A stretch of 64,000 bases of DNA from Prorocentrum cordatum (taxonomy: Eukaryota), in contig CAUYUJ010000293.1 in the NCBI GenBank assembly GCA_963575745.1, positions 1 to 64,000 on the forward strand, given 5' to 3'. Made by a program: the position numbers and the translations under genes. The notes beneath the pieces were generated by a model that saw only the letters and a list, made by a program, of their open reading frames with translations, was not told where the DNA came from and ran no database searches. Of the stretch, positions 6,135 to 61,557 are shown one piece after another (positions within the stretch are counted from its first letter, which is position 1; each line of letters opens with the position of its first letter).

Positions 6135-7458
6135 TTTGTCGTTCTTTGTTTTCAACCATTCGTTAAGAGCTCTAGTGTTATTTTCTCATGATATTCGAAT
6201 CTTATTTCCCGCTCGCATCTTGATCTCAGCTCGATCGGGTAACTTTGAAGGCCAAAAAGCGCTCGGGCGGGAACGGCCGTTTCGAGTCATCTTGATACGC
6301 ACTGTCGGTATTTTGTACTCAATTCGAGCTGTAGGGCAGCTACAGAGCTGGCAAGCACACCTATTGCATTCAGAATCATCAGGTGCGTTCGCCTGTTGAA
6401 TCCAGATGTCTGAATTCGGTCTGCTAGCCGAGCTAGGTCCGCAAACTCATTCGTATTATTCGAATCATCTTGACAGGCGCTCTCGGTATTTTGTACTTAA
6501 ATCGAGCTGTAGGGCAGCTACAAAGCTGGCAAGCACACCTATCGCATCCAGAATTATCAGGCGCGTTCGCCTGTTGAATCCAGAGGTCTGAACTCGGTCT
6601 GCTACCCGAGCTAGGTCCGCAGACCTATTCGTATCATCCGAGTCATCTTGACAGACGCTCTCGGTATTTTGTATTCAACTCGAGCTGTAGGGCAGCTGCA
6701 GAGTTGATAGTGACAGGAATCGGTTGGAAACGAGCAGGCGCGTTCGTCTGTCGAATCGAGAGCTCTGAACTCGGCCTGCTGCTTGAGCTAGGTTCGCGAA
6801 ATTATTCGTATTGTCCAACTCATCTTGAGAAGAGCTCTGAATTATCTGCTCTCAACTCGTGCTGGGGGAGCGCTGCAGTGCTGCGGGACACAGATATCGG
6901 TTCGCACACATCAGGCGCGTCTGTTGGTCGATACCAGAGCGCGGAACTCGGTTTGCGAACTAGGTCCGCGATACTATTATATTATTCCAGTCGATATTGT
7001 CGGTTTTCCGCACTTAACTCGGGCTGCAGGGGGAGCTGCAGGGCTGGGAATCACATGAGTGGATACGCAGACATCAGACGCGCCCGCCTGTCGCATTCAG
7101 AGGTCTGAAGTCGGTTCGATGCTCGAACTGGGTTGCGAAACTGTTTGATTTTTAATTACAGTCATCTTGAGAGGTCTGAAATCGCTTGGGCTGAAAAAAT
7201 ATTTGTTCTTTGGGTTTCTTGTCCACATTATATATTGTCAGGAAGCTCTACGAGTCCCCCGGCGGTAAGAAAGGTTGACGGTTTACCGCCGGTGCCCAGT
7301 ACCTCGTAGAGCTCTTCGTCATCGATGAGCTAGAGGAATTCCGGCGCGGGGTGCAGCTAGTAACTCGTAGAGCTTCCCTTAGCTAGTTATAGCTGGAAGC
7401 TAAGAGTAATTCCGGCGCGCTGGAGAGCTAGTTGGCAAGAAAAATCTCGACGGAACTT

Positions 7459-8920
7459 AACTCGTAGAGCTTCCCTTAGCTAGTTATAGCTGGAAGCTAA
7501 GAGTAATTCCGGCGCGCTGGAGAGCTAGTTGGCAAGAAAAATCTCGACGGACCTTTTGCTGACTTTTCGTCGGTTGAAAATTTGGTTCTCGAAATTTGAC
7601 AATTCGTTAGAGCTCTAGTATTTTTTCCCATGATATTTGATCTTATTCCCGCTCGCCATCTTGATCTCAGCTCGATCGGGTAACTTTGAAGGCCAAAAAG
7701 CAGGCAGGCGGGAACGGCCGGTTCGAGTCATCTTGATGCGCGCTGTCGGTTTTCTCAAGATAACTCGAGCTTCAGGAGCACTACAGAGCTGGCAAGCACA
7801 GCTTATGCATTCAGAATGATCAGGCGCGTTCGCCTGTTGAATCCAGAGGTCTGAACTCGGTCTGCTAGCCGAGCTAGGACCGCAAACCTATTCGTATTAT
7901 TCGAGTCGACTTGATACGTGTTGTCGGTATTTTCTACTTAACTCGAGTTCCAGGGCAGCTACAGTGCTGGTAAGCACAGCTATCGCACTCAGAATCATCA
8001 GGCGCGTTCGCCTGTTGAACCCATAGGTCTGAACTCGGTCTGCTAGCCGAGCTAGGTCCGCAAATCTATTCCTATTATTCGAGTCAACTTGATACGCGTT
8101 GTCGGGTTTCTCGACTCAAATCGAGCTGTAGGGCAGCTACAGTGCTGGTCAGCACACCTATCGCACTCATAATCATTACGCGCGTTCGCCTGTTGAATCC
8201 AGAGGTCTGAACTCGGTCTGCTAGCCGAGCTAGGTCCGCAAACCTATTCGTATTATTCGAGTCATCTTGACAGACGCTCTTGATTTTCTGTACTTAACTC
8301 GAGCTTTAGGGCAGCTACAGGGCTCATTGTCACAGACATCGATGGGAAATCATCAGTCGCGTTCGTCTACTGAACCGAGAGCTCTGAACTCGGTCTGCTG
8401 CCCGAGCTAGGTTCGCGAAACTATTCGTATTGTCCGAGTCATCTTGAGAAGTGCTCTCGGTTTTCTGCACTTAACTCGTGTTTGGGGCCGGCTACAGTGC
8501 TGCGGGGTCACATATATCGATTCTCACACATCAAGCGCGTTTGTCGGTCGATTCCAGAGCTCGGAACTCGGTCTGCTGCTCGAACTAGGTCCGCAAAACT
8601 ATTCTATTATTCGAGTCGATACTGTCGGTTTTCTGCACTTAACTCGGGCTGTAGGGGGGCTGCAGGGCTGGGAATCACATGAGTGGATTCGCAGACATCA
8701 GCTGCGGCCGCCTGTCGCATTCAGAGGTCTGAATCGGTTTGATACTCGAACTGGGTTGCGAAACCGGCTGGTTTTTGTTAGCGTTATCTTGAGAGGTCTG
8801 AAATCGCTTGGGCTGAAAAACTAGTCGTTATGTGGAGTTTTCCCCACACTTTATATTTTCAGGAAGCTCTACGAGTCCCCCGGCGGTAAGAAAGGTTGAC
8901 GGTTTACCGCCGGCGCCCAG
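7459..8920 (+). mobile_element. Complete family A element
   Basis: AACTCGTAGAGCTTCC start after T, 178-bp array, A-type 3' stem-loop ending CCCAG. Confidence 0.8.
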
Positions 8921-9022
8921 TTTGGGTGGTTTTGCAATTTTTTGAAAGATATTTGACCATTTATTTTGAGAAAGCAGATTTTTCGCACCTGTAAACGACT
9001 ATGAGGGCTTGTCTGTCTTAAT

Positions 9023-12000
9023 ATGAGCTCTGTAGGCGCTCTTTTACTATCAAAACACTTGGAGCAACCATCTTCATGCCGACACGAAAAAGTGAATTTG
9101 TCTTATTTTCTAGAAAATCCTTCCAGAAGCTATCTTTTTTCGACTCTGAGCACTCTCACGCGTGAAAGGAGCTACGAGGTCCCCGGCGGTGACCAGGTTG
9201 ACGGTTCACCGCCGACGCCAGTCCCGCGCATCGTTTCAGGCGGCCTGGCAGAGTTCCCCGTGCGGCGCTCCGCGCTTGGCATCGCTATCCGGGTTTTTCC
9301 CGGATAGCTCTTTGAGCTGAAGGGTTTCAGAGAAGAAGCCGGAGTGCTCGCTGGTTGGGCCGGACGCAAACGATCGCCGGTCCACGATTCTCGCAGCGCG
9401 CTGCCCGGCCTCGCAGCGGGTTCCGGGGCGCTTCGCAGCACGTACCTCGAGAGCTCTTCGTCATCGATGAGCTAGAGGAATTCCGGCGCAGGGTGAAGCT
9501 AGTTGGCCGACCCGGCCAGAACGGACAAAGTGATAACTTTTGGGTGGTTTTGCAATTTTTTGAAAGATATTTGACCATTTATTTTGAGAAAGCAGATTTT
9601 TCGCACCTGTAGACGACTATGATGGCCTCTGCGTCTTAATATGAGCTCTGTAGATGCGCTTTTACTATCAAAACACTTGGCGAAACCAACTTCATGTCGA
9701 CATGGAAAAAATCACGTTTTCTTTTTTCGAGAAATGCTTCCAGAAGCCCTCTCTTTTGATGCTGAGCACTCTCACGTGTGCCAGGAGCTCTACGAGGTTC
9801 CCGGCGGTGTCCAGGTTGACGGTTCACCGCCGGCGCCAGTTGGCCCACCCGGCGGAGGCGGACAATGTGATAACTTTTGGGTAGTTTTGCGAATACTTGA
9901 AAGATATTTGACCATTTATTTTGAGAAAGCAGATTTTTCGCACCTGTAGTGGGTTCAGGCGCGTCTGCCAGTAAACTTTTCAGGTCCGTAGCTACAGTAT
10001 TACTATCAAAACACTTGGAGGAACCGACCTTGGATAGAAACAGAAAAACGCGATTTTTCGATTTTGTCGTTACTCGCTCCACAGAAAGCTCCTTCCTGTG
10101 TTCTGAGGGATCGCTGTTGTGGATAAAAGAGCTCTACGGAGGGTCAAGGCGGTAATCGGGTTGACGGTTTACCCGCGGTTCCCCATCCGGGGAGCTGGAG
10201 AGCTAGTGGCAAGAAAAATCTCCGACGGGAAAAAAAAAAAAAACCCCTTTTTGTTTTTTGCTGACTTTTGGTCGGTTGAAAATTTTGTTCTCGAAATTTG
10301 ACCATTCGTTAGAGCTCTAGTATTTTTTTCCCATGATATTCGATCTTATTCCCGCTCGCCATCTTGATCTCAGCTCGATCGGGTAACTTTGAAGGCCAAA
10401 AAGCAGGGGGGCGGGAACGGCCGTTTCGAGTCATCTTGATACGCGCTGTCGGTTTTCTCAAGATAACCCGAGCTTCAGGACAACTACAGAGCTGGTCAGC
10501 ACAGCATCGATGAGCTAGAGGAATTCCGGCGCGGGGTGGAGCTAGTTGGTCGACCCGGCCAGAAAGGACAAAGTGGTAACTTTTGGGTGGTTTTGCGATT
10601 TTTTGAAAGATATTTGACAATTCATTTTGAGAAAGTAGATTTTTCGCACCTGTAAACGACTATGGGGGCCTCTCTGTCTTAGCATGAGCTCTGTAGGCGC
10701 AGTTTTACTATCAAAACACTTGGCGGAACCATCTTCATGTCGACACGAAAAAAACAATTTTTCAGTTTTTCGAGAAATGCTTCGAGAAGCTCTCTCTTTC
10801 GACTCCGAGCACTCCTACGCGTGAAATGTGCTCTACGAGGTTCCCGGCGGTGACCAGGTTGACGGTTCACCGCCGGCGCCAGTATGAGCTCTGTAGGCGC
10901 TCTTTTACTATCAAAACACTTGGAGCAACCATCTTCATGCCGACACGAAAAAGTGAATTTGTCTTATTTTCTAGAAAATCCTTCCAGAAGCTATCTTTTT
11001 TCGACTCTGAGCACTCTCACGCGTGAAAGGAGCTACGAGGTCCCCGGCGGTGACCAGGTTGACGGTTCACCGCCGACGCCAGTCCCGCGCATCGTTTCAG
11101 GCGGCCTGGCAGAGTTCCCCGTGCGGCGCTCCGCGCTTGGCATCGCTATCCGGGTTTTTCCCGGATCGCTTCTTTGAGGTGAAGGGTTTTTTCAGAGAAG
11201 AAGCGGAGTGCTCGCTTGGTTGGGCCGGACCGCAAAACGATCGCCGGTCCACGATTCTCGCAGCGCGCTGCCCGGCCTCGCAGCGGGTTCCGGGGCGCTT
11301 CGCAGCACGTACCTCGTAGAGCTCTTCGGCATCGATGAGCTAGAGGAATTCCGGCGCGGGGTGGAGCTAGTTGGCCGACCCGGCCAGAACGGACAAAGTG
11401 GTAACTTTTGGGTGGTTTTGCGAATATTTGAAAGATATTTGACCATTTATTTTGAGAAAGCAGATTTTTCGCACCTGTAGACGACTATGAGGGCCTCTGC
11501 GTCTTAATATGAGCTCTGTAGATGCGCTTTTACTATCAAAACACTTGGCGAAACCAACTTCATGTCGACATGGAAAAAAACACGTTTTCTTATTTTCGAG
11601 AAATGCTTCCAGAAGCCCTCTCTTTTGATGCTGAGCACTCTCACGTGTGCCAGGAGCTCTACGAGGTTCCCGGCGGTGTCCAGGTTGACGGTTCACCGCC
11701 GGCGCCAGTTGGCCCACCCGGCGGAGGCGGACAATGTGATAACTTTTGGGTAGTTTTGCGAATACTTGAAAGATATTTGACCATTTATTTTGAGAAAGCA
11801 GATTTTTCGCACCTGTAGTGGGTTATCGCGCGTCTGGCAGTAAACTTTTCAGGTCCGTAGCTACAGTATTACTATCAAAACACTTGGAGGAACCGACCTT
11901 GGATAGAAACAGAAAAACGCGATTTTTCGATTTTGTCGTTACTCGCTCCAGAAGCTTCCTTCCTGTGTTCTGAGGATCGCTGTGTGAGAAAAGAGCTCTA

Positions 12001-12340
12001 CGAGGGTCCCGGCGGTAATCTGGTTGACGGTTTACCGCTGGTTCCCATTCCGGGGAGCTGGAGTGCTAGTTGGCAAGAAAAATCTCGACGGACCTTTTGC
12101 TGACTTTTGGTCGGTTGAAAATTTCGTTCTCAAAATTTGACCATTCGTTAGAGCTCTAGTATTTTTTCCCATGATATTCGATCTCATTCCCGCTCGCCAT
12201 CTTGATCTCAGCTCGATCGGGTAACTTTGAAGGCCAAAAAGCAGGGGGGCGGGAACGGCCGTTTCGAGTCATCTTGATACGCGCTGTCGGTTTTCTCAAG
12301 ATAACCCGAGCTTCAGGACAACTACAGAGCTGGTCAGCAC
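9023..12340 (+). repeat. Local segmental duplication (about 9023-10500 repeated at about 10884-12340)
   Basis: Same ordered junctions (B end / GC-rich segment / B / C / A) occur twice; tracked ORFs 9023 and 10884 are near-identical. Confidence 0.8.
9444..9839 (+). mobile_element. Complete family B element (duplicate at 11311-11708)
   Basis: ACCTCG start after GCACGT, B-type 3' end. Confidence 0.8.
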
Positions 12341-13119
12341 AGCTAATGCATTCAGAATGATCAGGCGCGTTCGCCTGTTGAATCCAGAGGTCTGAACTCG
12401 GTCTGCTAGCCGAGCTAGGGTCGCAAACCTATTCGTATTATTCGAGTCATTGTAGCAGACGCTCTCGGTTTTTCGTACTTAACTCGATCTGTAGGGCAGC
12501 CACAGAGCTGATAATCACAGAAATCGATTGAGAATTATCAGGCGCGTTCGTCTGTTGAATCAAGAGCTCTGAACTCGGCCTGCTCCCCGAGCTAGGTTCG
12601 CGAACCTATTGGTATTGTTCGAGTCATCTTGAGAAGTGCTCTCGGTTTTCTGTACTTAAATCGTGCTGGGGGAGGGCTACAGTGCTGCTGGTCACAGGAA
12701 TCGATTTCGAGACATCAGGCGCGTCCGTTCGTCGAACCGAGAGCTCGGAACTCGGTCTGCTGCTCGAACGAGATCCGCGAAACTGTTGTATTATTCGAGT
12801 CATCCTGAGAGGTACTCTCGGTTTTCTGCACTTAACTCAGGCTGTATGGGGGGCTGCAGAGCTGGTAATCACAGGAATCGATCCGCAGACATCAGACGCG
12901 TCCGCCTGTCGCATTCAGAGGTCTGAACTCGGTTTCATACTCGAGCTCGATTGGAAAACTGTTCGTTTGTTTTGTTAGAGTCATCTTGAGAGGTCTATAA
13001 TCGCTTGGGCTGAAAAACTAGTCGTTCTCTGAAATTCTTTTCCACATTATATATTGTCAGGAAGCTCTACGAGTCCCCCGGCGGTAAGAAAGGTTGACGG
13101 TTTACCGCCGGCGCCCAGT

Positions 13120-16100
13120 AACTCGTAGAGCTTCCCTTAGCTAGTTACAGCTGGAAAGTAACTCGTAGAGCTTCCCTTAGCTAGTTATACCTCGTAGAGC
13201 TCTTCGACGAGATGAGCTAAGAGGAATTCGGGCGCAGGGTGGAGCTAGTTGGCCGACCCGACCAAAAGAGACAATGTGTTAACCTGGGGTCGGTTTTTGA
13301 AACTTTGTGCAAGATTTGACAATTCGTTTTCAGAAAACGGATTTTTCTCACATACAGTAAGCTATGGCGCACCTGCTGGTAAAATTTTCAGGGCTCTAGG
13401 GGCAATATTACTGTCAAAAGACTTGCAGGAACCGACTTTGCCTGCAGTGCAGTTTGGCAGGTGACGGTGGTTGGCTTTACTTAACTCGAGCTGTCAGCAA
13501 GCTACAGACCTCTCACGCACACCAGTCGATGCAGAATGATCTGGCGCGTCACACTGGAAGCTCGAGAGTTCCTAGAAATGGCTGAGTCAGGAGTTATGCT
13601 CGAAATACTGTCTCTATGTATGCGTGTTGCGAACGGTGTTTCGATGATAACTCGAGCTGAGTGCATGCTATGCATGCCAGGTACATTCCAATCGAAGCAG
13701 CGACATGCGAGACATCGAATGAGCCTCGAGAGTGCCCAAATTGATTAGAATTTTCAAAATTAATGAAAAATATCGATTTGTACAATTTTATATTTTTTGT
13801 GTCGGATGATTTTTTTCTAATTTATATCGATCTATGGGTGACCTAGAGAGTTCTGGTGCATTTTTGTCGACGCAGAATGGTCTCGCGCTCTCACTGAGAG
13901 CGCGAGACTTCATATGAATAGCTTCGCTGGGAGTGAGAACTTTGGTCCAGCCGGCCGAGGCGGACAATGTGACAACTTTTGGGTGGTTTTGCAATTTTTT
14001 GAAAGATATTTGACAATTCATTTTGAAAAAGCAGATTTTTACTCCGAGCATTGAGATATAAACTTCGTTCCCTGATCAGCTCGGCCATCTAGAGTCATTT
14101 TCAGTACCAGTTCACTTGAAGGAACCGACTTCATGTTGACTCCGAAAAAATCTCAACTTGAAGTTTTTGTAGAAAAGCTCCCAGAAGCTCCCGCTTTGAT
14201 GCTGAGCTTTCTCACGGATTCAAGGAGCTCTACGAGGTTCCCGGCGGTGACCAGGTTGACGGTTCACCGCCGGCGCCAGTAGCTGGAAGCTAAGAGTAAT
14301 TCCGGCGCGTCCCAGAGCTAGTAACTCGTAGAGCTTCCCTTAGCTAGTTATAGCTGGAAGCTAAGAGTAATTCCGGCGCGCTGGAGAGCTAGTTGGCAAG
14401 AAAAATCTCGACGGAACTTTTGGTGACTTTTGGTCGGTTGAAAATTTCGTTCTCGAAATTTGACAATTCGTTAGAGCTCTAGTATTTTTTCCCGTGATAT
14501 TCGATCTTATTCCCGCTCGCCATCTTGATCTCAGCTCGATCGGGTAACTTTGAAGGCCAAAAAGCACTCTGGCGGGAACGGCCGTTTCGAGTCATGTTGA
14601 TATGCGCTGTCGGTATTTTGTACTTAACTCGAGCTGTAGGGCAGCTACAGAGCTTGTAAGCACAGCTATCGCACTCAGAATCATCAGGCGCGTTCGCCTG
14701 TTGAATCCATAGGGCTGAACTCGGTCTGCTAGCCGAGCTAGGTCCGCAAACCTATCCGTATTATTCGAGTCAACTTGATACGCGTTGTCGGTATTTCTAC
14801 TTAACTCGAGCTGTAGGCCAGCTACAGTGCTGGTAAGCACGCCTATCGCACGAAGAATGATCAGGCGCGGTCGTCTGTTCAATTCACAGGTCTGAACTCG
14901 GTCTGCTAGCCGAGCTAGCTTCGCAAACCTATTCGTATTATTCGAGTCAACTTGATACGCGTTGTCGGTATTTTCTACTTAACTCGAGCTGTAGAGCAGC
15001 TACAGTGCTGGTGAGCACACCTATCGAACTCAGAATAATCAGGCGCGCTCGCCTGTTGAATTCATAGGTTTGAACTCGGTCTGCTAGCCGAGCTAGGTCC
15101 GCAAACCTATTCGTATTATTCGAGTCAACTTGATACGCGTTGTCGGTATTTCCTACTTTAATCGAGCTGTAGGGCAGCTACAGTGCTGGTAAGCACGCCC
15201 ATCGCACTCAGAATAATCAGGCGCGTTCGCCTGTTGAATTCAGAGCTCTGAACTCCGTCTGCTGCGCGATCTAGAATCACGAAACTGTTCGTATTCTTCC
15301 AGTCATCTTCAGAGCTACTGTCGGCGTTCTGCACTTAGCTCGGGCTGTAGGGGGGCTGCAGGGCGGGTAATCACAGGAATCGATTCGGAGACATCAGACG
15401 CCTCTGTCTGCTGCATTCAGAGGTCCGAACTCGGTCTGATACTCGAGTTGGGCTGAAAAACTATTCGTTCTCTGCAATTTTCTTCGACATTATATGTTGT
15501 CAGGAAGCTCTACGAGTCCCCCTCCTCTCCTTGTCCAATCATATGGGAAATAGTAGGGCGTTGTGCACAGGCACTCCCCTCCCATAGCAGTATCACTGAC
15601 GCTGAGCTTTCGGGTCTCGAGGGCCTCTTGCGGGCCGCAGTCCAGGTGGCCCAAGACCTCCAGCTGCAGAGAGACTAGGTAGGCACTTAACGGGCGCTGG
15701 GGCGCTCGGTGCCTGGTCAGCCTCCCCAAAAAAAAAAAAAACAAAGGTTGACGGTTTACCGCCGGCGCCCAGTTGGCAAGAAAAAGGTTGAAAATTTTGT
15801 TCTCGAAATTTGACAATTCGTTAGAGCTCTAGTATTTTTTCCCATGATATTCGATCTTATTCCCGCTCGCCATCTTGATCTCAGCTCGATCGGGTAACTT
15901 TGAAGGCCAAAAAGCACACGGGCGGGAACGACCGTTTCGAGTCATCTTGATAGGCACTGTCGGTTTTCTCAAGATAACTCGAGCTTCAGGACACCTACAG
16001 AGCTGGTCAGCACAGCTAATGCGTTCAGAATGATCAGGCGCGTTCGCCTGTTGAATCCAGAGGTCTGAACTCGGTCTGCTAGCCGAGCTAGGGTCGCAAA

Positions 16101-18134
16101 CCTATTCGTATTATTCGAGTCATTGTAGCAGACGCTCTCGGTTTTTCGTACTTAACTCGATCTATAGGGCAGCCACAGAGCTCATACTAACAGAAATCGA
16201 TTGAGAATTATCAGGCGCGTTCGTCTGTTGCATCAAGAGCTCTGAAATCGGCCTTCTCCCCGAGCAAGGTTCGCGAACCCATTCGTATTGTTCGAGTCAT
16301 CTTGAGAAGTGCTCTCGGTTTTCTGTACATAAATCGTGCTGGGGGAGGGCTATAGCTCTGCTGGTCACAGGAATCGATTTCGAGACATCAGGCGCGTCCG
16401 TTCGTCGAACCGATCGCTCGAAACTCGGTCTGCTGCTCGAACGAAATCTGCGAAACTGTTGTATTATTCGAGTCATCCTGAGAGGTACTCTCGGTTTTCT
16501 GCACTTAACTCATACTGTATGGGCTGCAGAGCTGGTAATCACAGAAATCGATCCGCAGACATGAGACACGTCCGCCTGTCGCATTCAGAGGTCTGAACTC
16601 GGTTTCATACTCGAGCTCGATTGGAAAACTGTTTGTTTGTTTTGTTAGAGTCATCTTTGGAGGTTCATAATCGCTTGGGCTGAAAAACTGGTCGTTCTCT
16701 GAAATTCGTTCCACATTATATATTGTCAGGAAGCTCTACGAGTCCCCCGGCGGTAAGAAAGGTTGACGGTTTACCGCCGGCGCCCAGTAAGAGTAATTCC
16801 GGCGCGCTGGAGAGCTAGTTGGCCAGAAAAATCTCGACGGACTTTTGATGACTTTTGGTCGGTTGAAAATTTTGTTCTCGAAATTTGACAATTCGTTAGA
16901 GCTCTAGTATTTTTTCGCATGATATTCGATCTTATTCCCACTCGCCATCTTGATCTCGGCTCGATCGGGTAACTTTGAAGGCCAAAAAGCAGGCAGGCGG
17001 AAACGGCCGTTTTGAGTCATCTTGATACGCGTTGTCGGTATTTTCTACTTAACTCGAGCTGTAGGGCAGCTACAGTGCTGATTAGCACGCCTATCGCACT
17101 CAGAATGATCAGACGCGTTCGCCTGTTGAATCCGTAGGTCTGAACTCGGTCTGCTAGCTGCTGGGTCCGCAAACTTATTCGTATTACTCGAGTCAACTTG
17201 ATACGTGATGTCGGTATTCTCTACAAAACTCGAGCTGTAGGGCAGCTACAGTGCTGGTAAGCACATCTATGGCTCTCAGAATCATCAGGCGCGTTCGTCT
17301 GTTGAATCCATAGGTCTGAATTCGGCCGAGCTAGGTCCGGAAACCTATTCGTATTATTCGAGTGAACTTGATACGCGTTGTCGGTATTCTCTACTCAACT
17401 CGAGCTGTAGGGCAGCTACAGTGCTGGTAAGCACACCTATCGCACTCAGAATCATCACGCGCGTTCGCCTGTTGAATCCGGAGGTCTGAACTCGGCCTGC
17501 TAGCCGAGCTAGGTCCGCAAACCTATTCGTATTATGCGAGTCATCTTGACATGCGCTCTGGGTTTTCTGCACTTAACTCGAGCTGTAGGGCAGCTACAGG
17601 GCTTATTGTCACAGCCATCGATGGGGAATCATCAGTCGCGTTCGTCTGCTGAACCAAGAGCTCTCAACTCGGCCTGCTGCCCGAGCTAGGTTCGCGAAAC
17701 TATTCGTATTGTCCGAATGATCTTGAGAAGTGCTCTCTGTCTTCTGCACTTAACTCGTGTTTGGGGCCGGCTACAGTGCTGCGGGCCACATATATTGGTT
17801 TGTACACATCAGGCGCGTTAGTCGGTCGATCTCAGAGCTCGGAACTCGGTCTGCTGCTCGAACTAGGTCCGCAAAACTATTCTTTTATTCGAGTCGATAC
17901 TTTCGGTTTTCTGCACTTAACTCGGGCTGTAGGGGGGCTGCCGGGCTGAAAATCACATGATACTCGAACTGGGTTGCGAAACTGTTTATTTTCTCTGTTA
18001 TCTTGAGAGGTCTGAAATCGCTCGGGCTGAAAAACTAGTCGTTCTTTGGAGTTTTTTCCCACACTTTATATTTTCAGGAAGCTCACGAGTCCCCCGGCGG
18101 TAAGAAAGGTTGACGGTTTACCGCCGGCGCCCAG
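13120..18134 (+). mobile_element. Four-element nest: A(13120-18134) contains A(13160-16787), which contains composite B(13189-14279) and A(14323-15772)
   Basis: Flanks rejoin: AGTTA-T-AGCTGG around 13189-14279; GCTAG-T-TGGCAAG around 14323-15772; CTGGAAAG-T-AAGAG around 13160-16787. Confidence 0.85.
15523..15741 (+). mobile_element. 5'-truncated non-LTR retrotransposon 3' end or retrocopy with poly(A), inserted in an A 3' hairpin
   Basis: Foreign ~205 bp plus A14 replaces GGCGGT of the hairpin. It reads open for 51 codons (SSPCPIIWEIVGRC...LQLQRD*); CPxxW resembles the end of a LINE ORF2 C-terminal zinc knuckle. Confidence 0.6.
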
Positions 18135-20896
18135 TTGCTGGAAGCTAAGAGTAATTCCGGCGCGGTGGAGAGCTAGTAACTCGTAGAGCTTCCCTTAGCT
18201 AGTTATAGCTGGAAGCTAAGAGTTCTTCCGGCGCGCTGGAGAGCTAGTTGGCAAGAAAAATCTCGACGGAACTTTTGGTGACTTTTGGTCGGTTGAAAAT
18301 TTTGTTCTCGAAATTTGACTATTCGTTAGAGCTCTAGTATTTTTTCCCGTGATATTCGATCTTATTCCCGCTCGCCATCTTGATCTCAGCTCGATCGGGT
18401 AACTTTGAAGGCCAAAAAGCACTCTGGCGGGAACGGCCGTTTCGAGTCATGTTGATATGCGCTGTCGGTATTTTGTACTTAACTCGAGCTGTAGGGCAGC
18501 TACAGAGCTTGTAAGCACAGCTATCGCACTCAGAATCATCAGGCGCGTTCGCCTGTTGAATCCATAGGGCTGAACTCGGTCTGCTAGCCGAGCTAGGTCC
18601 GCAAACCTATTCGTATTATTCGAGTCAACTCGATACGCGTTGTCGGTATTTTCAACTTAAATCGAGTTGTAGGGCAGCTAGAGTGCTGGTAAGCACGCCT
18701 ATCGCACGGAGAATGATCAGGCGCGGTCGTCTGTTGAATTCATAGGTCTGAACTCGGTCTGCTAGCCGAGCTAGGTCCGCAAACCTATTCGTATTATTCG
18801 AGTCAACTTGATACGCGTTGTCGGTATTTTCTAATTAACTCGAGCTGTAGAGCGGCTGCAGTGCAGGTAAGCACACCTATCGCACTCAGAATAACCAGGC
18901 GCGTTCGCCTGTTGAATTCATAGGTTTGAACTCGGTCTGCTAGCCGAGCTAGGTCCGCAAACCTATTCGTATTATTCGAGTCAACTTGATACGCGTTGTC
19001 GGTATTTTCTACTTAACTCGAGCTGTAGGGCAGCTACAGTGCTGGTAAGCACACCTATCGCACTCAGGATAATGAGGCGCGTTCGCCTGTTGAATCCAAA
19101 GCTCTGAACCGGTCTGCTGCGTGATCTAGAATCACGAAACTGTTCGTATTCTTCCAGTGATCTTGAGAGCTACTGTCGGCGTTCTGCACTTAGCTCGGGC
19201 TGTAGGGGGGCTGCAGGGCGGGCAATCACAGGAATCGATTCGGAGACATCAGACGCCTCTGTCTGCTGCATTCAGAGGTGCGAACTCGATCTGATACTCG
19301 AGTTGGGCTGAGAAACTATTCGTTCTCTGCAATTTGCTTCGACATGTCGGTTGAAAATTATGTTCTCCAACTTTGACAATTCGTTAGAGCTCTAGTATTT
19401 TTTCTCGTGATATTCGATATTATTCCCGCTTGCCATCTTAATCTCAGCTCGATCGGGTACCTTTTACTGCTAAAAAGCACACTGGCGGGATCGGCCGTTT
19501 CGAGTCATCTTGATACACGTTGTCGGTTTTTTGTACTCAACTCGAGCTCTAGGACAGCTACAGAGCTGGTAAGCACAGCTATCGCACTCAGAATGATCAG
19601 GCGCGTTCACCTGTTTAAACGAGAGGTCTGAACTCGGTCTGTGAGCCGCGCTAGGTCCGTAAACCTATTCGTATTATTCGAGTCAACTTGATACGTGTTG
19701 TCGGTATTTTCTACTAAACTTGAGCTGTAGAGCAGCTACAGTGTGGGTAAGCACACCTATCGCACTCAGAATCGTCAGGCGCGTTCGCCTGTTGAATCCA
19801 TAGGTCTGAACTCGGTCTGCTAGCCGAGCTAGGTCCGCAAACCTATTCATATTATTCGAGTCAACTTGATACGCGTTGTCGGTATTTTCTACTTCACTCG
19901 AGCTGTAGGTCGCACTCAGAATCATCAGGCGCGTTCGCCTATTGAATCCATAGGTCTGAACTCGGTCTGCTGGCCGAGCTAGGTCCGCAAACCTCTTCGT
20001 ATTATTCGAGTCAACTTGACACGCGTTGTCAGTATTCTGCACCCAATTCGAGCTGCAGGGCAGCTACAGCTCTGATAAGCACAGCTATCGCACTCAGAAT
20101 CATCAGGCGCGTTCGCCTCTTGACTGCAGAGGTCTGGACTCGGTCTGCTAGCCGAGCTAGGTTCGCAAATCTATTCGTATTATTCGAGTCATCTTGACAA
20201 ACGCTCTCGGTATTTCCTGTACTTCTCGAGCTGTAGACAGCTACAGAGCCTACAGTCACAGAGCTCGATTGAGAATTATTGTGCGCGTTTGTCTGTTCTA
20301 TCGAGAGCTCTGAACTCGGCCTGCCCGAGCTAGGTTCGCGAAACTATTCGTATTGTCCGAATCATCGTAAGTGCTCTCAATTTTCTGCACTGAACTCGTG
20401 CTGGGGGAGGGCTACAGTGCTGCGGGTCATAGAAAACGATTTGCACACATCAGGCGCGTTCGTTGGTCGATTCGAGAGCTCAGAACTTGGTCTGCTGCTC
20501 GAAGCAGGTTTGCGAAACTATTATATTATTCGAGTTATTCTGAGAGATGCTGTCGGACTTAACTCGGGTTGTAGGGGGGCTGCAGGGCTGGTAATCACAT
20601 GAGTCGATTCGCAGACATCAGACGCGTCCGCCTGTCGCATTGAGAGGTCTGAACTCGGTCTGATCAGACGCGTCCGCTTGTCGCATTCAGAGGTCAAAAC
20701 ATATTCACTATAAGTCAGAATGTTTGAAGGTGCTCTCGGTTTTCTCAGCTTAAGTCGAGCTTGGAAGCTCTACGAGTTCCCCGGCGGTAACCAAGGTTGA
20801 CGGTTTACCGCCGGCGCCCAGTTCCGGAGCGCTGGAGAGCTAGTTGGCAAGAAAAATCTCGACGGACCTTTTGGTGACTTTTCGTCGGTTAAAAAT

Positions 20897-21291
20897 ACCT
20901 CGTAGAGCTCTTCGGCATCGATCAGCTAGAGGAATTCCGGCGCGGGGTGGAGCTAGTTGGTCGACCCGGCCAGAAAGGACAAAGTGGTAACTTTTGGGTG
21001 GTTTTGCAATTTTTTGAAAGATATTTGACAATTCATTTTTAGAAAGCAGATTTTTCGCACCTGTAAACGACTATGAGGGCCTCTCTGTCTTAGTATGAGC
21101 TCCGTAGGCGGACCTTTACTATCAAAACACTTGGAGCAACGATCTTCATGTCGACACGAAAAAATCAATCTTTACCCTTTTCGAGAAATGCTTCCAGAAG
21201 CTCTCTCTTTCGACTCTGAGCACTCTCACGCGTGAAAGGAGCTCTACGAGGTTCCCGGCGGCGACCAGGTTGACGGTTCACCGCCGGCGCC
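20897..21291 (+). mobile_element. Family B element nested in an A 5' region
   Basis: Left flank GGTTAAAAAT and right flank TTGTTCTCG rejoin the A consensus; terminal AG is missing. Confidence 0.75.
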
Positions 21292-24233
21292 TTGTTCTCG
21301 AAATTTGACAATTCGTTTAAGCTCTAGTATTTTTTCCCGTCATATTCGATCTTATTCCCGCTCGCCATCTTGATCTCAGCTCGATCGGGTACTTTTCACT
21401 GCCAAAAAGCGTCCCGGCGGGAACGGCCGTTTCGAGTCGTCTTGATACGCGTTGTCGGTATTTTGTACTTAACTCGAGCTGTGGGGCAGCCACAGAGCTG
21501 GTAAGCACACCTATCGCATTCAGAATCATCAGGCGCGTTCGCCTGTCAAATCCAGAGGTCTGAACTCGGTCTGCTAGCCGAGCTAGGTTTGCAAACCTGT
21601 TCGTAGTATTCGAGTCATCTTGACAGACGCTCTTGGTTTTCTGTACTTAACTCGAGCTGTAGCGCAGCTACAGGGCTCATTGTCACAGACATCGATGTGG
21701 AATCATCAGTTGCGTTCGTCCATTGAATCGAGAGCTCTGAACTGGGCCTGCTGTCCGAGCTAAGTTCGCGAAACTATTCGTATTGTGCGTATTATCTTGA
21801 GAAGTGCTCTCAATTTTCTGCACTCAACTCGTGCTGGGGGAGGGCGACAGTGCTGCGGTTCACAGATATCTATTTTTACAGCTCAGGCGCGTCTGTCGGT
21901 CGATTTCAGAGCTCCGAAATCGGTCTGCTGCTCGAACTAGGTTCGCGAAACTATTCTCGAGTCGATACTGTCGGTTTTCTGCACAGAAACTCGGGCTGTA
22001 GGGTGGCTGCAGGGCTGGGAATCACATGAGCGTTTGCAGACATCAGACGCGCCCGCCTGTCGCATTGAGAGGTCTGAACTCGGTTTGATACTCGAAATGG
22101 GTTTCGAAACTGTTTGTTCTTTGTTAGAGTCATCTTGAGAGGTCTGAAATCGCTTGGGCTGAAAAACTAGTCGTTCTTCAAGTTTTCCCCACGCCATCTA
22201 CTGTCAGGAAGCTCTACGAGTCCCCCGGCGGTAAGAAAGGTTGACGGTTTACCGCCGGCGCCCAGTAGCTGGAAGCTAAGAGTTATTCCGGCGCGCTGGA
22301 GAGCTAGTTGGCTCGAAAAAAAAGAACTGAACTTTTCACAACTTTGAGTCGGTTGAAAAGTATGTTCTCGAAATTTGACAATTCGTTAGAGTTCTAGTAT
22401 TTTTTCCCGTGATATTCGATCTTATTCCCGCTCGCCATCTTGATCTCAGCTCGATCGGGTAAATTTGAAGGCGAAAAAGCACACTGGCGGGATCGACTGT
22501 TTCGAGTTATTTATACGCGTTGTCGGTATTTTGTACTTAACTCGAGCTGCAGGACAGCTACAGAGCTGGTAAGCACAGCTTTCGCACTCAGAATCGTCAG
22601 GCGCGTTCGCCTGTTGAAGCCAGAGGTCTTAATTCGGTCTGCTAGCCGAGCTATGTCTGCAAACCTATTCGTATTATTCGAGTCAACTTGATACGTGTTG
22701 TCGGTATTTTCTACTTAACTCGAGCTGTAGGGCAGCTACAGTGCTGGTAAGCACGCCTATCGCACTGAGAATCATCAGACTCGTTCGCCTGCTAAATCCA
22801 TAGGTCTGAACTCGGTCTGCTGGCCGAGCTAGGTCCGCAAACCTCTTCGTATTATTCGAGTCAACTTGACACGCGTTGTCGGTATTTTCTACTTTACTCG
22901 AGCTGTAGGGCAGCTACAGAGCTGGTAAGCACACCTATCGCACTCAGAATCATCAGGCGCGTTCGCCTGTTGAGTCCATAGGTCTGAACTCGGTCTGCTA
23001 CTCGAGCTAGGTCCGCAAACCTATTCGTATTATTCGAGTCAACTTGATACGCGTTGTCGGTATTTCCTACTTAACTCGAGCTGTAGGGCAGCTACAGTGC
23101 TGGTAAGCACACCTATCGCACTCAGAATCATCGGGCACGTTCGCCTGTTGAATCCAGAGGTCTGAACTCGGTCTGCTAGCCGAGCTAGGTCCGCAAATCT
23201 ATTCGTACTATTCGAGTCATCTTGACAAACGCTCTCGGTATTTTCTGCACTTAACTCGAGCTGTGGGCAGCTACAGAGCCTACACTACAGTCACAGAAAT
23301 CGATTGAGAATTATCGAGCGTGTTTGTCTGTTGTATGGAGAGCCCTGAACTCGGCCTGCTGCCCGAGCTAGGTTCGCGAAACTATTCGTATTGTCCGAAT
23401 CATCGTGAAAAGTGCTCTCAATTTTCTGCACTCAACTCGTGCTGGGGGAGGGCTACAGTGCTGCGGGTCATAGAATCGATTTGCACACATCAGGCGCGTT
23501 CGTTGGTCGATTCGAGAGCTCAGAACTTGGTCTGCTGCTCGAAACAGGTCTGCGAAACTATTATGTTATTCGAGTCATCCTGAGAGATGCTGTCGGTTTT
23601 CTGCACTTAACTCGGGCTGTAGGGGAGCTGCAGGGCTGGTAATCACATGAGTCGATTCGCAGACATCAGACGCGTTCGCCTGTCGCATTGAGAGGTCTGA
23701 ACTCGGTCTGATCAGACGCGTCCGCTTGTCGGATTCAGAGGCCAAAAAATATTCACTATGAGTCAGAATGTTGGTAGGTGCTCTCGGTTTTCTCAACTTA
23801 AGTCGAGCTTGGAAGCTCTACGAGTTCCCCGGCGGTAACCAAGGTTGACGGTTTACCGCCGGCGCCCAGTTGGGCCGCCCGGTCGAAAAGGACAAATTGG
23901 TGACTTTTGCTCGGTTTTGCGAAAATGTGAAAGATATTTAACCATTTATTTTGAGAAAGCAGATTTTTGCGCGTCGCATTGGCATATAAAATCCTCCCTG
24001 ACAGCAGCTCAGCTCCTCCGATACATTTTTGCACGAGTTGACTTCCGGGAACTGAGCGAATATGAATATCGAAAAAATCGAAAATGATGATTTTCGAAAA
24101 ATCTCTATTTTTTTGACTTGGTGTCGATTCTGAGCACTCTTACCAGTGGAAGGAGCTCTACGAGGTTCCCGGCGGTGACCAGGTTGACGGTTCACCGCCG
24201 GCGCCAGTAATTCCGGGGAGCTGGAGAGCTAGT

Positions 24234-24630
24234 ACCTCGTAGAGCTCTTCGGCATCGATGAGCTAGAGAAATTCCGGCGCGGGGTGGAGCTAGTTGGCCG
24301 ACCCGGCCAGAACGGACAAATTGGTAACTTTTGGGTGTTTTTGCGAATATTTGAAAGATATTTGACCATTTATTTTGAGAAAGCAGATTTTTCGCACCTG
24401 TAGACGACTGTGAGGGCCTCTGTGTCTTAATATGAGCTCTGTAGATGCGCTTTTACTATGAAAACACTTGGCGGAACCAACTTCATGTCGACATGGAAAA
24501 ATCACGTTTTCTTATTTTGGAGAAATTCTTCAAGAAGCCCTTCCTTTTGATGCTGAGCACTCTTACACGTGCCAGGAGCTCTACGAGGTTCCCGGCGGTG
24601 TCCAGGTTGAGGGTTCACCGCCGGCGCCAG
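24234..24630 (+). mobile_element. Complete family B element nested in A
   Basis: GAGCTAG-T[element]T-TGGCAAGAAAAATC; removing the element and one T restores the A consensus. Confidence 0.9.
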
Positions 24631-26356
24631 TTGGCAAGAAAAATCTCGACGGACCTTTTGCTGACTTTTGGTCGGTTGAAAAATTTGTTCTCAAAATTTG
24701 ACCATTCGTTAGAGCTCTAGTATTCTTTCCCATGGTATTCGATCTTATTCCCGCTCGTCATCTTGATCTCAGCTCAATCGGGTAACTTTGAAGGCGAAAA
24801 AGCAGGCAGGCGGGAACGGCCGTTTCGAGTCATCTTGATATGCGCTGTCGGTTTTCTCAAGATAACTCGAGCTTCAGGACAACTAACGAGCTGGTCAGCA
24901 CAGCTAATGCAGTCAGAATGCTCAGGCGCGTTCGCCTGTTGAACCCAGAGGTCTGAACTCGGTCTGCTAGCCGAGCTAGGGTCGCAAACCTATTCGTAGT
25001 ATTCGAGTCATTGTAGCAGACGCTTTCGGTTTTTCGTACTTAACTCGATCTGTAGGGCAGCCACAGAGCTGATAATCACAGAAATCGATTCAGAATTATC
25101 AGGCGAGTTCGTGTGTTGAATCGCGAGCTCTGAACTCGGCCTGCTTCCCGAACTAGGTTCAGGCTGTATGGGGGGCTGCAGAGCTGGTAATCACAGGAAT
25201 CGATGCGCAGACATCAGACGCGTCCGCCTGTCGCATTCAGAGGTCTGAACTCGGTTTCATATTCGAGCTCGATTGGAAAACTGTTTGTTTGTTTTGTTAG
25301 AGTCATTTTGAGAGGTCTATAGTCTTGGGCTGAAAAACTAGTCGTTCTCCAGCGCGCCCCACAGCGCGCCCCACAGCTAGTTGGCTCGAAAAATCTCGAC
25401 GGACTTTTTGACAACTTTTGCTCGGTTGAATTTTTTTTCTCAAAATTTGACTATTCGTTTGAGCTCTAGTATGTTTTCCCGTTATATTCGATCTTATTCC
25501 CGCTCGCCATCTTGATCTCAGCTCGATCGGGTGAATATTACTATCGAAAGCACTGTGGCGGGATCGGCCGTTTTTCAGTCATCTTGATATGCGCTGACGG
25601 TTTTGAACATAATTCGAGCCCTAGGGCAGCTAGAGAGCTGGTAAGCACAGCTAATGCATGCAGAATGATCAGGCGCGTTCGCCTGTTGAATCCAGAGGTC
25701 TGAACTCGGTCTGCTAGCCGAGCTAGGGCCACACACCTGTTCGTATTATTCGAGTAATCTTGACAGAAACTCTTGGTTTTCTGCACTTAACTCGAGCTGT
25801 AGGACAGCTACAGAGCTGATATTTACAGGCACCAATTCAGAATCATCAGTTGCGTTTGTCTGTCGACTCCATAGCTCTGAACCCGGCCTGCTGCCCACTC
25901 TAGAATCGCGAAACTATTCGTATCGTTCGAGTCGCTTGCGAGATAATGTCGGTTATCTGGGCTTAACTCGGGCTGTAGGGGGGCTGCATGGCTGGTCATT
26001 ACTGGATCGATCTGAGGACATCAGGCGCGTCCGCCTGTCGAATACAGAGCTGTGAGCTCTGCCTGCTGCACGAACTAGTTCCGCGAAACTATTCCCATTG
26101 TTCGAGTCACTCTGAGAGGTGCTGTCGGTTTTCTGCACTTAACTCGGGCTGTAGGGGGGCTGCAGGGCTGGTAATGACAGGAGTCGATTCGCAGACATCA
26201 GATGCGCCCGTCTGTTGCATTCAGAGGTCAAAAACTATTCACCATGAGTCAGATTGTTGGTAAGTGCTGTCGGTTTTCTCAACTTAAGTCGAGTTAGGAA
26301 GCTCTACGAGTCCCCCGGCGGTAACCAAGGTTGACGGTTTACCGCCGGCGCCCAGT

Positions 26357-26760
26357 TAATCCCGGATAGCTCCTTGAGAGCACAGGGTTTCAGATAAGAA
26401 GCCGGCGGTGGGTGGTGAGGAGGACACGCCCACCTCCGCCGGTCCACGATCGTCGCAGCAGCTTGCCGGAGCTTGCAGCGGGTCCGGGAGCGTGGCTTCC
26501 CAGCGTTTCCCAATACGCGTGGCTCCAGGGTGCGCGAAGCGCTTCGGCAGAGCTTCGGAAGAGCTTCGTCAGTTCTTCCAGGCTTCTAGGCAGCTTTGCA
26601 GGGCCCCACGCATCGTAAACGGCGCCCCTGCAAAGCGTCTCCTGCGAGGTTTCCAGCGTCCCGCGCATCGTTTCAGGCGGCCTGGCAGAGGTCCCCGCGG
26701 CGTTCCGCGCTTGGCTTCGCTATTCGGGTTTTGGACGCTTACAAGTTGCTGGATGCTTAA
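26357..26760 (+). repeat. GC-rich interstitial repeat (related pieces at 9222-9443, 11083-11310, 36105-36250, 36380-36788, 45113-45255; inverted at about 47980-48055 and 49587-49660)
   Basis: Shared motifs TCCCGCGCATCGTTTCAGGCGGCCTGGCAGAG, GGGTTTTGGACGCT and TGCACGCGTGCAGGC. Lacks its own A/B termini. Confidence 0.6.
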
Positions 26761-26916: not shown

Positions 26917-27315
26917 ACCTCGTAGAGCTCTTCGGCATCGATGAGCTAGAGGAATTCTGGCGCGGGGTGGAGCTAGTTGGTCGACCCGACCAGAACGGAC
27001 AATGTGGTAACTTTTGGGTGGTTTTGCAAATGTCTGAAAGATATTTGACCATTTATTTTGAGAAAGCAGAATTTTCGCACCTGTAGACGAATATGAGGGC
27101 CTATCTGTCTTAATATGAGCTCTCTAGATGCACTTTCACTATCGAAACACTTGGCGCAACCAACTTTATGTCGACATGAAAAAAAAGCACGTTTTCTCTT
27201 TTTCGAGAAATGCTTCCAGAAGCCCTCTCGTTTGATGCTGAGCACTGTTACGCGTGCTAGGAGCTCTACGAGGTTTCCGGCGGTGACCAGATTGACGGTT
27301 TACCGCCGGCGCCAG
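26917..27315 (+). mobile_element. Complete family B element
   Basis: ACCTCGTAGAGCTC start after T; 3' stem-loop ending GCCAG. Confidence 0.8.
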
Positions 27316-38092: not shown

Positions 38093-38181
38093 GCCGTTGG
38101 GACAACCCCGCGGGCCAGGCTGTCGGGACAACCCCGCGAGCCGTTGGCGCGCAAGACCAAGCCGTTGGGACAACCCCGCGG
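38093..38181. repeat. Three short direct repeats GGGACAACCCCGCG downstream of the helicase stop
   Basis: Motif GC(C/T)GT(T/C)GGGACAACCCCGCG seen three times. Confidence 0.8.
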
Positions 38182-38205
38182 GCTTCGAGCGAGGCGCAGC
38201 CGCGC

Positions 38206-38688: not shown

Positions 38689-38767
38689 CTGAGGAGCCCA
38701 AAAACTTCCTTGTTGCATCCAAAGTGTGGCCTGGGAACTGCGTTCTGGCAGCGCGAGAACCCAACAT

Positions 38768-39830: not shown

Positions 39831-39832
39831 AA

Positions 39833-40030
39833 CGATGATGAGGATGAGGATGATGAGTGGTGGTGAAGATGAGTGGTGAAGAGGATGATGATTGATTGTG
39901 GGTGGTGGTGGCGATGATGATGTTTGAATGAGGATGATGCCGATACCGATGATGACGATGATGTTCGTGAGCGTGTGAGAGAGTGCGAGTGATGATGATG
40001 TGTGTGTGAATGAGTGCGAGGAGAAGAGGG
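39833..40030. repeat. Degenerate (GAT)n/(GT)n microsatellite
   Basis: GATGATGAGGATGAGGATGATG... and GTGTGTGA tracts near the 5' end of the Helitron2-like element. Confidence 0.85.
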
Positions 40031-61508: not shown

Positions 61509-61557
61509 TGTCCCTTGTGGGGTGCCCAGGCGGTTTTTCTTGAGATAGCCACGAACA

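Follow-up and report, generated by a model that had tools for sequence, protein, structure and literature searches.

Introduction

Helitron2 and Helentron transposons, together with non-autonomous relatives of the HINE and DINE-1 type, are the closest described systems to the repeated elements that fill a 64,000-nucleotide (nt) stretch of the Prorocentrum cordatum genome (assembly GCA_963575745.1, contig CAUYUJ010000293.1, positions 1 to 64,000 of the forward strand; the whole stretch is hereafter referred to as the window). In the available part of the account of Bao and Jurka (2013), Helitron2 elements insert after a T (target T^(T/C)), with no target duplication where the copy is full-length, carry their 3' repeat just upstream of a 3' hairpin and ~20-30 bp from the 3' end, are moved by a RepHel transposase of the Helitron2 clade, and include families with frequent 5' truncation and an over-abundance of 3' ends. 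The available sections of Thomas et al. (2014) describe HINE/DINE-1 elements with subterminal inverted repeats of 12-15 bp, a 3' repeat 38-60 bp and a palindrome 8-35 bp from the tip, central microsatellites or tandem repeats, and no target duplication; their autonomous Helentron partner encodes Rep, helicase and AP-endonuclease domains, and DINE-1-like elements are enriched in centromeres and heterochromatin. Satellite-carrying HINEs are represented by Cg_HINE of the oyster. Insertion of such elements into one another is likewise on record, again as far as the accessible text of each source goes. In the Fusarium element FoHeli (Chellapan et al. 2016), stacked 5' termini, with a repeated 5' piece of <200 bp, arise via self-insertion and re-mobilisation, copying proceeding from the outer 5' end and halting at the first 3' end, and a TR4 study of 2026 reports FoHeli copies with up to five 5' termini. 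In maize (Dong et al. 2011), a nest was re-mobilised by copying that began at an inner 5' end and ran past several 3' ends, and both elements with three 3' ends and remnants with two 5' ends were found.

An earlier inspection of the letters of the window (the sequence-only reading) had proposed that its elements insert into the 5' ends of their own relatives, so that each interrupted host resumes behind the insert. We assign a probability of roughly 0.7 to the reading that the window is a cluster of HINE-like elements grown by mutual insertion into a polar nest, with a preference for the 5' regions and 3' ends of resident copies.

Results

Element families and terminus counts

The window as a whole is described by a single feature.

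1-64000, plus strand: near-pure polar array of related non-autonomous rolling-circle elements of families A/A', B and D, recognised by termini and tandem repeats

The G+C content is ~49% across the window, except for one 2-kb bin at 61%. Tandem Repeats Finder returned 49 rows, the majority being arrays with a period of 175-179 bp that occur throughout the window; the unit of this internal satellite is 177-178 bp, with 2-8 copies per element. Copies in the array are 85-95% alike, and Rfam gave zero family matches anywhere in the 64 kb. A looser hairpin-based scan, with four decayed ends added by eye, placed 63 3' ends on the plus strand and one on the minus strand, and the 29-nt 3'-tip motif of one element matched 31 times on the plus and once on the minus strand with at most four errors. 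There are 38 5' starts on the plus strand, of which 34 are true starts found with the motif CTCGTAGAGCT at no more than one mismatch and four are decayed starts added by eye; an extra start at 36833, with two mismatches and also seen by eye, brings the total to 39. The sole minus-oriented element of the family, at 60660-62793, has its 3' end at 60806-60834 and its 5' end at 62793, abuts a plus-strand 3' end at 60660, and contains a purine-rich low-complexity stretch that yields long spurious open reading frames (ORFs) at 61351-62363.

Family A starts with A-ACTCGTAGAGCTTCC, the 15-nt inverted repeat beginning at base 2, 1 nt from the tip, and its 3' end consists, in order, of GGAAGCTCTACGAGT, CCCCCGGCGGTAAGAAAGGTTGACGGTTTACCGCCGG and CGCCCAGT. 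The 5' and 3' 15-mers are perfect complements, and the 3' copy lies 45 nt from the tip, directly upstream of a hairpin; the stem of this hairpin is 10 bp long and leaves an 8-nt tail, which closes with AGT at the tip. All 35 plus-strand matches to the terminal 15-mer were identical to the query, while the internal repeats were only 70-94% matched. When folded as single-stranded DNA, bases 2-46 of family A are predicted to form one hairpin that includes the 5' repeat, and the predicted 140-nt 5' fold has an energy of -25.1 kcal/mol (z = -3.9; 0 of 200 shuffles were as stable). The tips of family B are A-CCTCGTAGAGCTC at the 5' end and GGAGCTCTACGAGG, then CCGGCGGTGA..TCACCGCCGG, then CGCCAGT at the 3' end, and the inverted repeats and hairpin arms of A and B differ by compensating changes (GGTAA/TTACC in A, GGTGA/TCACC in B). 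Family D begins with CCCGGATAGC, has a 10-nt terminal/subterminal inverted repeat of its own, ends in ..ACAAGT or ..CAAGT, and is without an obvious 3' hairpin. Its copies (26361-26746, 36106-36523 and 36641 onward, as well as L001 477-890) land after T in family-A 5' regions, and the D end is itself followed by new A or B copies. One of the D copies is described by the following feature.

26361-26746, plus strand: family-D element after TAAT of a resumed host, with 5' CCCGGATAGC, a matching subterminal inverted repeat and the end ..ACAAGT

AGT is the closing trinucleotide of every family in the window. On these sequence features, the elements are classed as putative non-autonomous transposons of the rolling-circle kind and of Helitron2/Helentron (HINE-like) type, in three related families, and the architecture that the sequence-only reading had put forward (subterminal inverted repeats, a 3' stem-loop and central tandem repeats) is supported. 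To the extent that the published descriptions are available, the elements resemble the non-autonomous Helitron2 elements Helitron-1N1/1N2_CRe and CRe-1/2/3 of Chlamydomonas in a hairpin-forming 5' repeat that begins 0-2 nt from the tip, in a 3' repeat next to the 3' hairpin, in insertion after T and in compensatory repeat changes. They differ from these in the distance of the 3' repeat from the tip, 45 nt rather than ~20-30 nt, in a target that is mainly A-G-T^ rather than TTTT^, in their central 177-178-bp satellite and in dense nesting within their own 5' regions, of which the available Helitron2 text makes no mention. All of the HINE dimensions given above accommodate them (subterminal repeats of 15 bp, a 3' repeat at 45 nt and a palindrome at 8 nt from the tip), as do the central tandem repeats and the lack of target duplication. 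However, HINE flanks are described as T-rich, with at least TT on each side, whereas the flanks here are mostly AGT^T, with a T after only 34 of the 63 3' ends, and, unlike HINEs, the elements here are massed in a polar nest.

A three-deep nest at 13120-18135

The clearest succession of inserts, in which host positions are written A30, B62 and so on, comprises the following features.

13061-13119, plus strand: 3' end of the element before X1, comprising its 3' inverted repeat and hairpin and closing with ..CGCCCAGT, head-to-tail with X1

13120-18135, plus strand: X1, the outer element, its own parts being 13120-13159 (A1-40) and 16789-18135 (A41 to the 3' end)

13160-16788, plus strand: X2, the middle element, its own parts being 13160-13188 (A1-29), 14281-14322 (A30-71) and 15774-16788 (A72 on)

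13189-14280, plus strand: family-B (long form) element inside X2 between A29 and A30, placed by its flank join

14323-15773, plus strand: X3, a family-A element inside X2 between A71 and A72 (GAGCTAGT^TGGCAAG), placed by reading the junction

For each insert, the 15 nt before it and the 15 nt after it were joined, and the result was matched against all uninterrupted sites of the window. The flank closed over the family-B element (13189/14280) agreed with uninterrupted copies elsewhere in the window at 0 mismatches in 30, that closed over X2 (13160/16788) at 3 in 30, and that closed over X3 (14323/15773) along its first 12 nt (TGGCAAGAAAAA), and the block 13160-16788 contains three 5' starts and three 3' ends. 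These joins bear out the nest with rejoining flanks that had been proposed for 13120-18134. The end positions proposed at that time were 1 nt short. The base before each 5' end is a T, as is the last base of each element, and since exact rejoining needs one T, the element can be written as AACTCG..CCCAGT or as TAACTCG..CCCAG but not as AACTCG..CCCAG. Of the 10 pairs that rejoin at ≤4 mismatches, 8 went from 0-4 to 6-11 mismatches when one side was shifted by a single base, while shifting both ends together added at most 2; 24234-24631 and 57079-58224 each tolerated two of the four possible one-base shifts about equally well.

X3 itself carries a foreign insert.

15520-15745, plus strand: unrelated poly(A)-tailed insert in the 3' hairpin of X3, ~225 nt, with a run of 14 A at its end

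About 10 nt of the left arm of the X3 hairpin are absent at this site, and the insert, for which Rfam gave no match, looks like a short retroposed copy similar to a short interspersed nuclear element (SINE).

Nesting exceeds chance

A naive left-to-right bracket parse of the termini gave 37 pairs, of which 28 were testable, as a pair was left out of the flank test if it lay directly behind a 3' end or if a new 5' start came next. At ≤3 mismatches in 30, 8 of the 28 rejoined (13189-14280, 13160-16788, 24234-24631, 33220-34263, 56633-57032, 57079-58224, 63021-63386 and 62960-63724), whereas permutation yielded 1.02 on average and never more than 6 in 20,000 trials. At ≤4 mismatches, 10 of 28 rejoined and permutation yielded 1.39 on average and 8 at most in 20,000, and among all 1,824 combinations of starts and ends, 65 (3.6%) rejoined at ≤3. 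The naive parse mis-pairs in blocks with surplus 3' ends and was superseded by the flank test together with coordinate matching, in which the flanks were placed on the reference 5' region and the largest non-crossing set of pairs with continuous host coordinates was taken. Coordinate matching closed 20 of the 32 non-tandem 5' starts, which corresponds to 20 of the 25 having an assignable host coordinate; with shuffled labels, the mean was 10.2 and the maximum 14, and 20 was reached in 0 of 1000 trials. Sixteen of the 22 matched blocks were internally balanced in 5' starts and 3' ends, including blocks of 7/7 and 3/3. Thus, flank rejoining is better than chance by both measures (8 of 28 versus 1.0 expected, and 20 of 25 versus a null of 10.2), and the flank test, the coordinate matching and the balanced blocks all indicate that what appears to be 5' truncation is often a resumed host, as had been suggested.

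Other nested pairs and stacked 5' termini

Further insertions of the same kind are found across the window.

24234-24631, plus strand: family-B (short form) element at A71/72, 1 mismatch in 30

33220-34263, plus strand: family-A' element in a B host at B89/90, 3 mismatches in 30

45344-46388, plus strand: family-A' element in a B host at B88/89, >4 mismatches, by eye collinear with family B and without indel

46727-47793, plus strand: element in a minus-oriented A copy at ~A186, the sole opposite-orientation nest, 4 mismatches in 30

57079-58224, plus strand: family-A' element at A71/72, 1 mismatch in 30

56633-57032, plus strand: nested pair, 2 mismatches in 30

20897-21293, plus strand: nested pair with an approximate rejoin, its 3' tip decayed

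63021-63386, plus strand: family-B element in a B host at B61/62, within the block 62960-63724, by the flank and coordinate tests

51347-53451, plus strand: composite block in which a single 5' start is accompanied by two 3' ends, lying exactly between host A49 and A50, by coordinate matching

All of the other pairs that had been listed as rejoining exactly (24234, 33220, 45344, 46727 and 57079) or nearly so (20897 and 56633) were reproduced, that at 45344 by eye only. The two examples given as failing to pair, 7459-8920 and 40243-41349, do fail within family A, the left flank stopping at A97 in both; 7459-8921 and 40243-42348 instead close across families, passing from A97 to the homologous site B98. 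At 7362-7555, a 97-nt direct repeat of 98% identity consists of the first 97 nt of an A element followed by a complete A element at A97/98, and this site was reused at 40243 by the A' subfamily. In five places, 5' termini are stacked within <200 bp of one another (4210/4239/4289, 7301/7362/7459, 13120/13160/13189, 36789/36833/36880 and 51263/51304/51347).

Insertion-site preference

A T precedes the insertion in 37 of the 38 5' flanks, compared with a T content of 27.8% in the window, and 20 of the 38 (17 of 32 distinct flanks) end in AGT, which makes up 1.28% of background trinucleotides. Base -3 is A in 25 of the 32 distinct flanks, and 24 of all 38 end in GT but only 4 in TT. Of the 63 3' ends, 34 are followed by T and 6 by C, the commonest join being A-G-T^T, and hosts rejoin without duplicated bases.

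The left flanks are far from evenly distributed. Twenty-one of the 38 lie inside the first ~125 nt of a resident copy (A26-A123 or B61-B89), with 5' compartments making up 6,057 nt or 9.5% of the window, and six lie directly behind a resident A or B 3' end. Another seven follow other ..AGT or ..CGT ends for which the host position is not assignable, some of them matching the D 3' end, and the remaining four are found elsewhere (minus-oriented A5 at ~186, inside a 3' hairpin, A3-136 and B198). Automatic compartment labelling left 15 of the 38 flanks unlabelled, as these are short fragments, which were classed via the junction table instead. No insertion (0 of 38) was found in the internal satellite, which accounts for 23,196 of the 64,000 nt (36%), 216 of the 818 AGT sites (26%) and 36% of T. 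As seen from the other side of the junctions, the sequence after 3' ends starts within A≤138 or B≤98 in 43 of 63 cases.

Within the 5' regions, certain sites recur, namely A29/30, A46/47, A49-51, A71/72, A97/98 and A123/124 in family A and B39/40, B61/62 and B88-90 in family B. Placed on the predicted fold, these sites map to the loop of the 5' hairpin, to the base of its 3' arm or the nucleotides immediately after it, and to unpaired stretches beyond. Site A71/72 has been used by A, A' and B-short elements, A29/30 by A' and B-long, and A123/124 by B-long and B-short, and since different families have used them, such shared sites represent independent events. Nested insertions have the orientation of their host in 21 of 22 cases. 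Furthermore, head-to-tail junctions between different families are found at 4686/4687, 7300/7301 and 56606/56607, which argues for insertion rather than concatemers, since a concatemer of one circle cannot give a mixed-family junction.

It could be supposed that there is no self-targeting and that the transposase needs only a T (or AGT), the nests following simply from a region saturated with elements. Indeed, all but one of the insertions follow T, about half follow AGT, and almost everything that the window offers as a target is an element. However, such a transposase would be expected to enter the satellite, with its 26% of AGT sites and 36% of T, rather than to avoid it in all 38 cases; nor would it be expected to place 21 insertions in 9.5% of the sequence and six more exactly behind 3' ends, or to share the orientation of the host in 21 of 22 nests. 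We consider this account quite improbable. Same-orientation insertion into the 5' regions of relatives, as originally claimed, thus occurs far above the sequence share of these regions, and insertion behind 3' ends has to be added to it.

Surplus 3' ends, deletions and duplicated composites

As in Helitron2 families with 5' truncation and 3' over-abundance (in the available part of their description), 3' ends here outnumber 5' ends. This surplus requires units that are truncated or have multiple termini, or else hosts opened upstream of the window. Since the 5' fragments of hosts measure ≤125 nt and their resumed tails >1 kb, it may also be that the 64 kb cover the part where a deep nest closes, in which many 3' ends would be expected to have their 5' stacks upstream of the window.

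Deletion and recombination had also been suspected, rightly so, and one deletion can be read base for base.

18136-20822, plus strand: element with its 5' start at 18178 behind host fragment A30-71, with a deletion at 19345/19346

At this deletion, the body of the inner element runs into the host at ~A110, and the inner 3' repeat, hairpin and tip are gone along with host A72-109. Because the deletion fused the inner element to its host, the bracket opened at 18178 seems to close at A50 rather than A72. Its flanks (A71 on the left, A50 on the right) could be taken for a 22-nt target duplication of 18178-20822, of the kind published for Helitron2, which is ruled out, as they result from the deletion fusion. 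Similarly, 26917-27316, where A46 is followed by A30, was considered as a 17-nt duplication and is better explained as a block with two 3' ends closed at 28334.

Composites have been copied as units. The segment 14219-15490 matches 18073-19345 at 95% identity across a 3' end, host A30-71 and a new 5' start, and 9022-10505 matches 10883-12343, 1,861 nt downstream, at 95% identity over ~1.5 kb and four junctions. A 200-bp two-copy repeat (10684-11083) is located at the edge of the latter duplication. Minus-oriented A 5' regions are present at 47793-47977 and 49400-49584, each behind a plus-strand 3' end with the same junction and 1.6 kb apart, and these are a further duplicated composite. Nested composites therefore stay copyable, and deletions fuse inner elements to their hosts.

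These observations bear on whether the array owes its origin chiefly to one-ended copying with 5' truncation, to rolling-circle concatemers and to unequal crossing-over, with nesting in the minority and no real homing. The starts at A30, A50 and A72 behind 3' ends would then be mostly truncated copies instead of resumed hosts. Such an origin would account for the excess of 3' ends over 5' starts (63 to 38) and for surplus 3' ends within matched blocks, for consecutive units that start at differing internal positions (28335 at A47, 29919 at A117, 31423 at A51) and for the segmental duplication 9022-10505/10883-12343, and the available text of Bao and Jurka (2013) documents Helitron2 families with both 5' truncation and 3' over-abundance. 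It does not predict that 20 of the 25 assignable 5' starts close collinearly, far above the null, nor the exact one-base boundaries and balanced multi-element blocks. Orphan 5' fragments stacked two to four deep are predicted by nesting and are not made by truncation, head-to-tail junctions of mixed families occur, and the supposed truncation points are proven insertion sites. Thus, we regard a predominantly truncated or concatemeric origin as unlikely, although less so than an absence of targeting.

A helicase remnant in one element

The element at 36880-40216, which has family-A termini, carries a GC-rich (61%) segment of 2.3 kb at 37796-40088 that sits exactly between positions adjacent in five sibling copies and includes the following feature.

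38215-38730, minus strand: last ~175 codons of a PIF1-family helicase gene, inside 37796-40088

The remnant is 53-57% identical to metagenome proteins of ~1,000-1,270 amino acids that have a Pfam PIF1 domain. No Pfam Rep domain was found in these homologues, and a sequence search of PDB with the longest of them gave no match. Only ~90 amino acids follow their last helicase motif, too few for an endonuclease domain at the C-terminus, and this short C-terminus may be a weak hint against an endonuclease-bearing (Helentron) partner. One homologue starts with ..FYINAYTTKH.., which may resemble the two-tyrosine rolling-circle motif. The remnant may derive from an autonomous partner of the family. 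Pfam gave no hits for three ORFs of the window, and an atlas comparison of the window ORFs gave a weak helicase-C lead only. The GC-rich segment also contains a 160-bp tandem repeat (38760-39831; 6.7 copies, 94% identity).

Occurrence outside the window

The exact 28-nt 3'-terminal string matched three metagenome contigs, in which 3 of 3 5' starts follow AGT, one 3' end is followed by A50, and a D element lies after GGAACTTTT. At ≥95% identity, the stretch 12800-18400 was matched by 113,582 contigs of sequencing run X1 and 19,854 of run X2, and contigs of run X2 join 3' ends to ~A49, A69, A96-97 and A137. It should be noted that the contigs of the four runs are ~90 nt long and thus show abundance and junction types rather than filled or empty sites or long-range order. 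From the contig numbers, the family is very abundant in the samples of runs X1 and X2 and must be among their most abundant repeats. Runs that contain parts of the window are mostly aquatic metagenomes.

These contigs are also relevant to whether the nest is an artefact of assembling a long repeat array. Repetitive arrays are hard to assemble, especially with copies 85-95% alike, but the junctions are base-exact at the termini, hosts rejoin exactly, and the same junction types are seen in independent short-read metagenome contigs and in contigs of other runs. An assembly artefact is therefore very improbable, more so than any other alternative considered here.

Discussion

The results favor a cluster grown by mutual insertion, and several of them weigh against this reading or limit its reach. 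There are 63 3' ends for 38-39 5' starts, 6 of the 22 matched blocks have between one and three 3' ends too many, and a further 27 3' ends and 12 5' starts belong to no matched block. The fully automatic test was passed by only 8-10 of 28 pairs. Six host coordinates used in coordinate matching (15773, 6135, 21293, 46388, 57032 and 63724) were corrected by eye, and that test consequently leans towards nesting, which the automatic flank test does not. In the nest at 13120-18135, the flank of X3 fits for 12 nt before a host deletion and fails the ungapped test. Some junctions copy a single event (14219-15490, 9022-10505), and as a result the junction counts are not all independent. Furthermore, 13 of the 38 flanks carry AAT, TAT, CTT, ATT or TTT instead of AGT, which makes the motif loose, and the enrichment in 5' regions could partly reflect the survival of insertions. 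Lastly, the window encodes no transposase, only the helicase C-terminal remnant, and the target-recognition step is one that we infer. Accordingly, of the self-homing, pure and polarised domain originally envisaged, the nesting, the preference for 5' regions and for positions behind 3' ends, and the polarity stand, whereas the extent of the array that nesting explains does not, given the disparity between 63 and 38 termini, and the suggested centromeric or structural role went too far.

In the mechanism we envisage for mutual insertion, a RepHel-type HUH transposase supplied in trans would recognise the end structures of a resident element and nick single-stranded DNA at T^ sites near these ends. 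Each resident copy would in this way become a target, and the cluster would grow as a polar nest. If a nest were mobilised again, copying that set out at an inner 5' end and overran the matching 3' end could generate units with multiple 3' ends, and copying that set out at an outer 5' end but stopped at the first 3' end could generate units with multiple 5' ends. Such processes, or hosts opened upstream of the window, would account for the surplus of 3' ends, and 5'-truncated copying may add to the imbalance.

Both FoHeli and the elements described here have Helitron2-like termini and several 5' termini stacked within <200 bp before one body. However, as far as the published parts at hand describe it, FoHeli forms a few composites of autonomous 5-11-kb elements, whereas here dozens of events involve short, satellite-bearing non-autonomous elements that occupy 64 kb or more, use defined hot spots and nest across families. 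Nested maize Helitrons share the imbalance in terminus numbers but are canonical (5' TC, 3' CTRR, A^T target), and the available portion of their description does not mention self-targeting hot spots. The literature searched, with the Fusarium supplementary tables lying outside the search, held no report of a large polar array produced by mutual insertion at defined sites, no Helitron-like target motif equal to the element's own terminal trinucleotide and no targeted homing; among printed terminal motifs, only unrelated primers were found, and the 16-nt 3' terminus was absent. Tandem centromeric Helitrons have reportedly been described by Xiong, Dooner and Du, in 2016. A distant parallel is IS91, a bacterial HUH rolling-circle insertion sequence, whose target tetranucleotide resembles its own end. 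The elements described here similarly have a target motif equal to their own terminal motif, and in both systems copies can be one-ended or arranged head-to-tail. IS91 is prokaryotic, encodes its own transposase and is without nesting into a 5' hairpin region, and the analogy is confined to mechanism. One-ended transposition of IS91 is cited in the available text of Bao and Jurka (2013).

The density and resolution of Helitron self-insertion in the window are unusually high. However, the novelty implied by the sequence-only reading was too great, since self-insertion, multi-terminus composites and 5' truncation of Helitron2 are already in print, in the parts of those sources at hand, and the window is thus an extreme, well-resolved case rather than a new principle. 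It is possible, although we hold this only tentatively, that the elements form a guild whose transposase prefers the family's own 5' hairpin region and 3' terminus (AGT^) for integration, and that they thereby home to one another by design, building chromosome-scale, single-orientation, satellite-rich domains that would serve as a transposon safe haven and possibly as raw material for a structural region such as a centromere.

For the annotation of such arrays, apparent 5'-truncated copies are often resumed hosts, and the copy counts and ages derived from standard repeat masking will be wrong. On target choice in Helitron2 and Helentrons, the available portions of published accounts give only flanking-base preferences. 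If the preference described here is a property of the transposase, it would provide defined nick sites (A-G-T^T in a hairpin context) for in vitro tests of Helitron2/Helentron targeting. It would also constitute a simple route by which these elements spread without hitting genes, and would mean that satellite-bearing transposons can seed long polar repeat domains.

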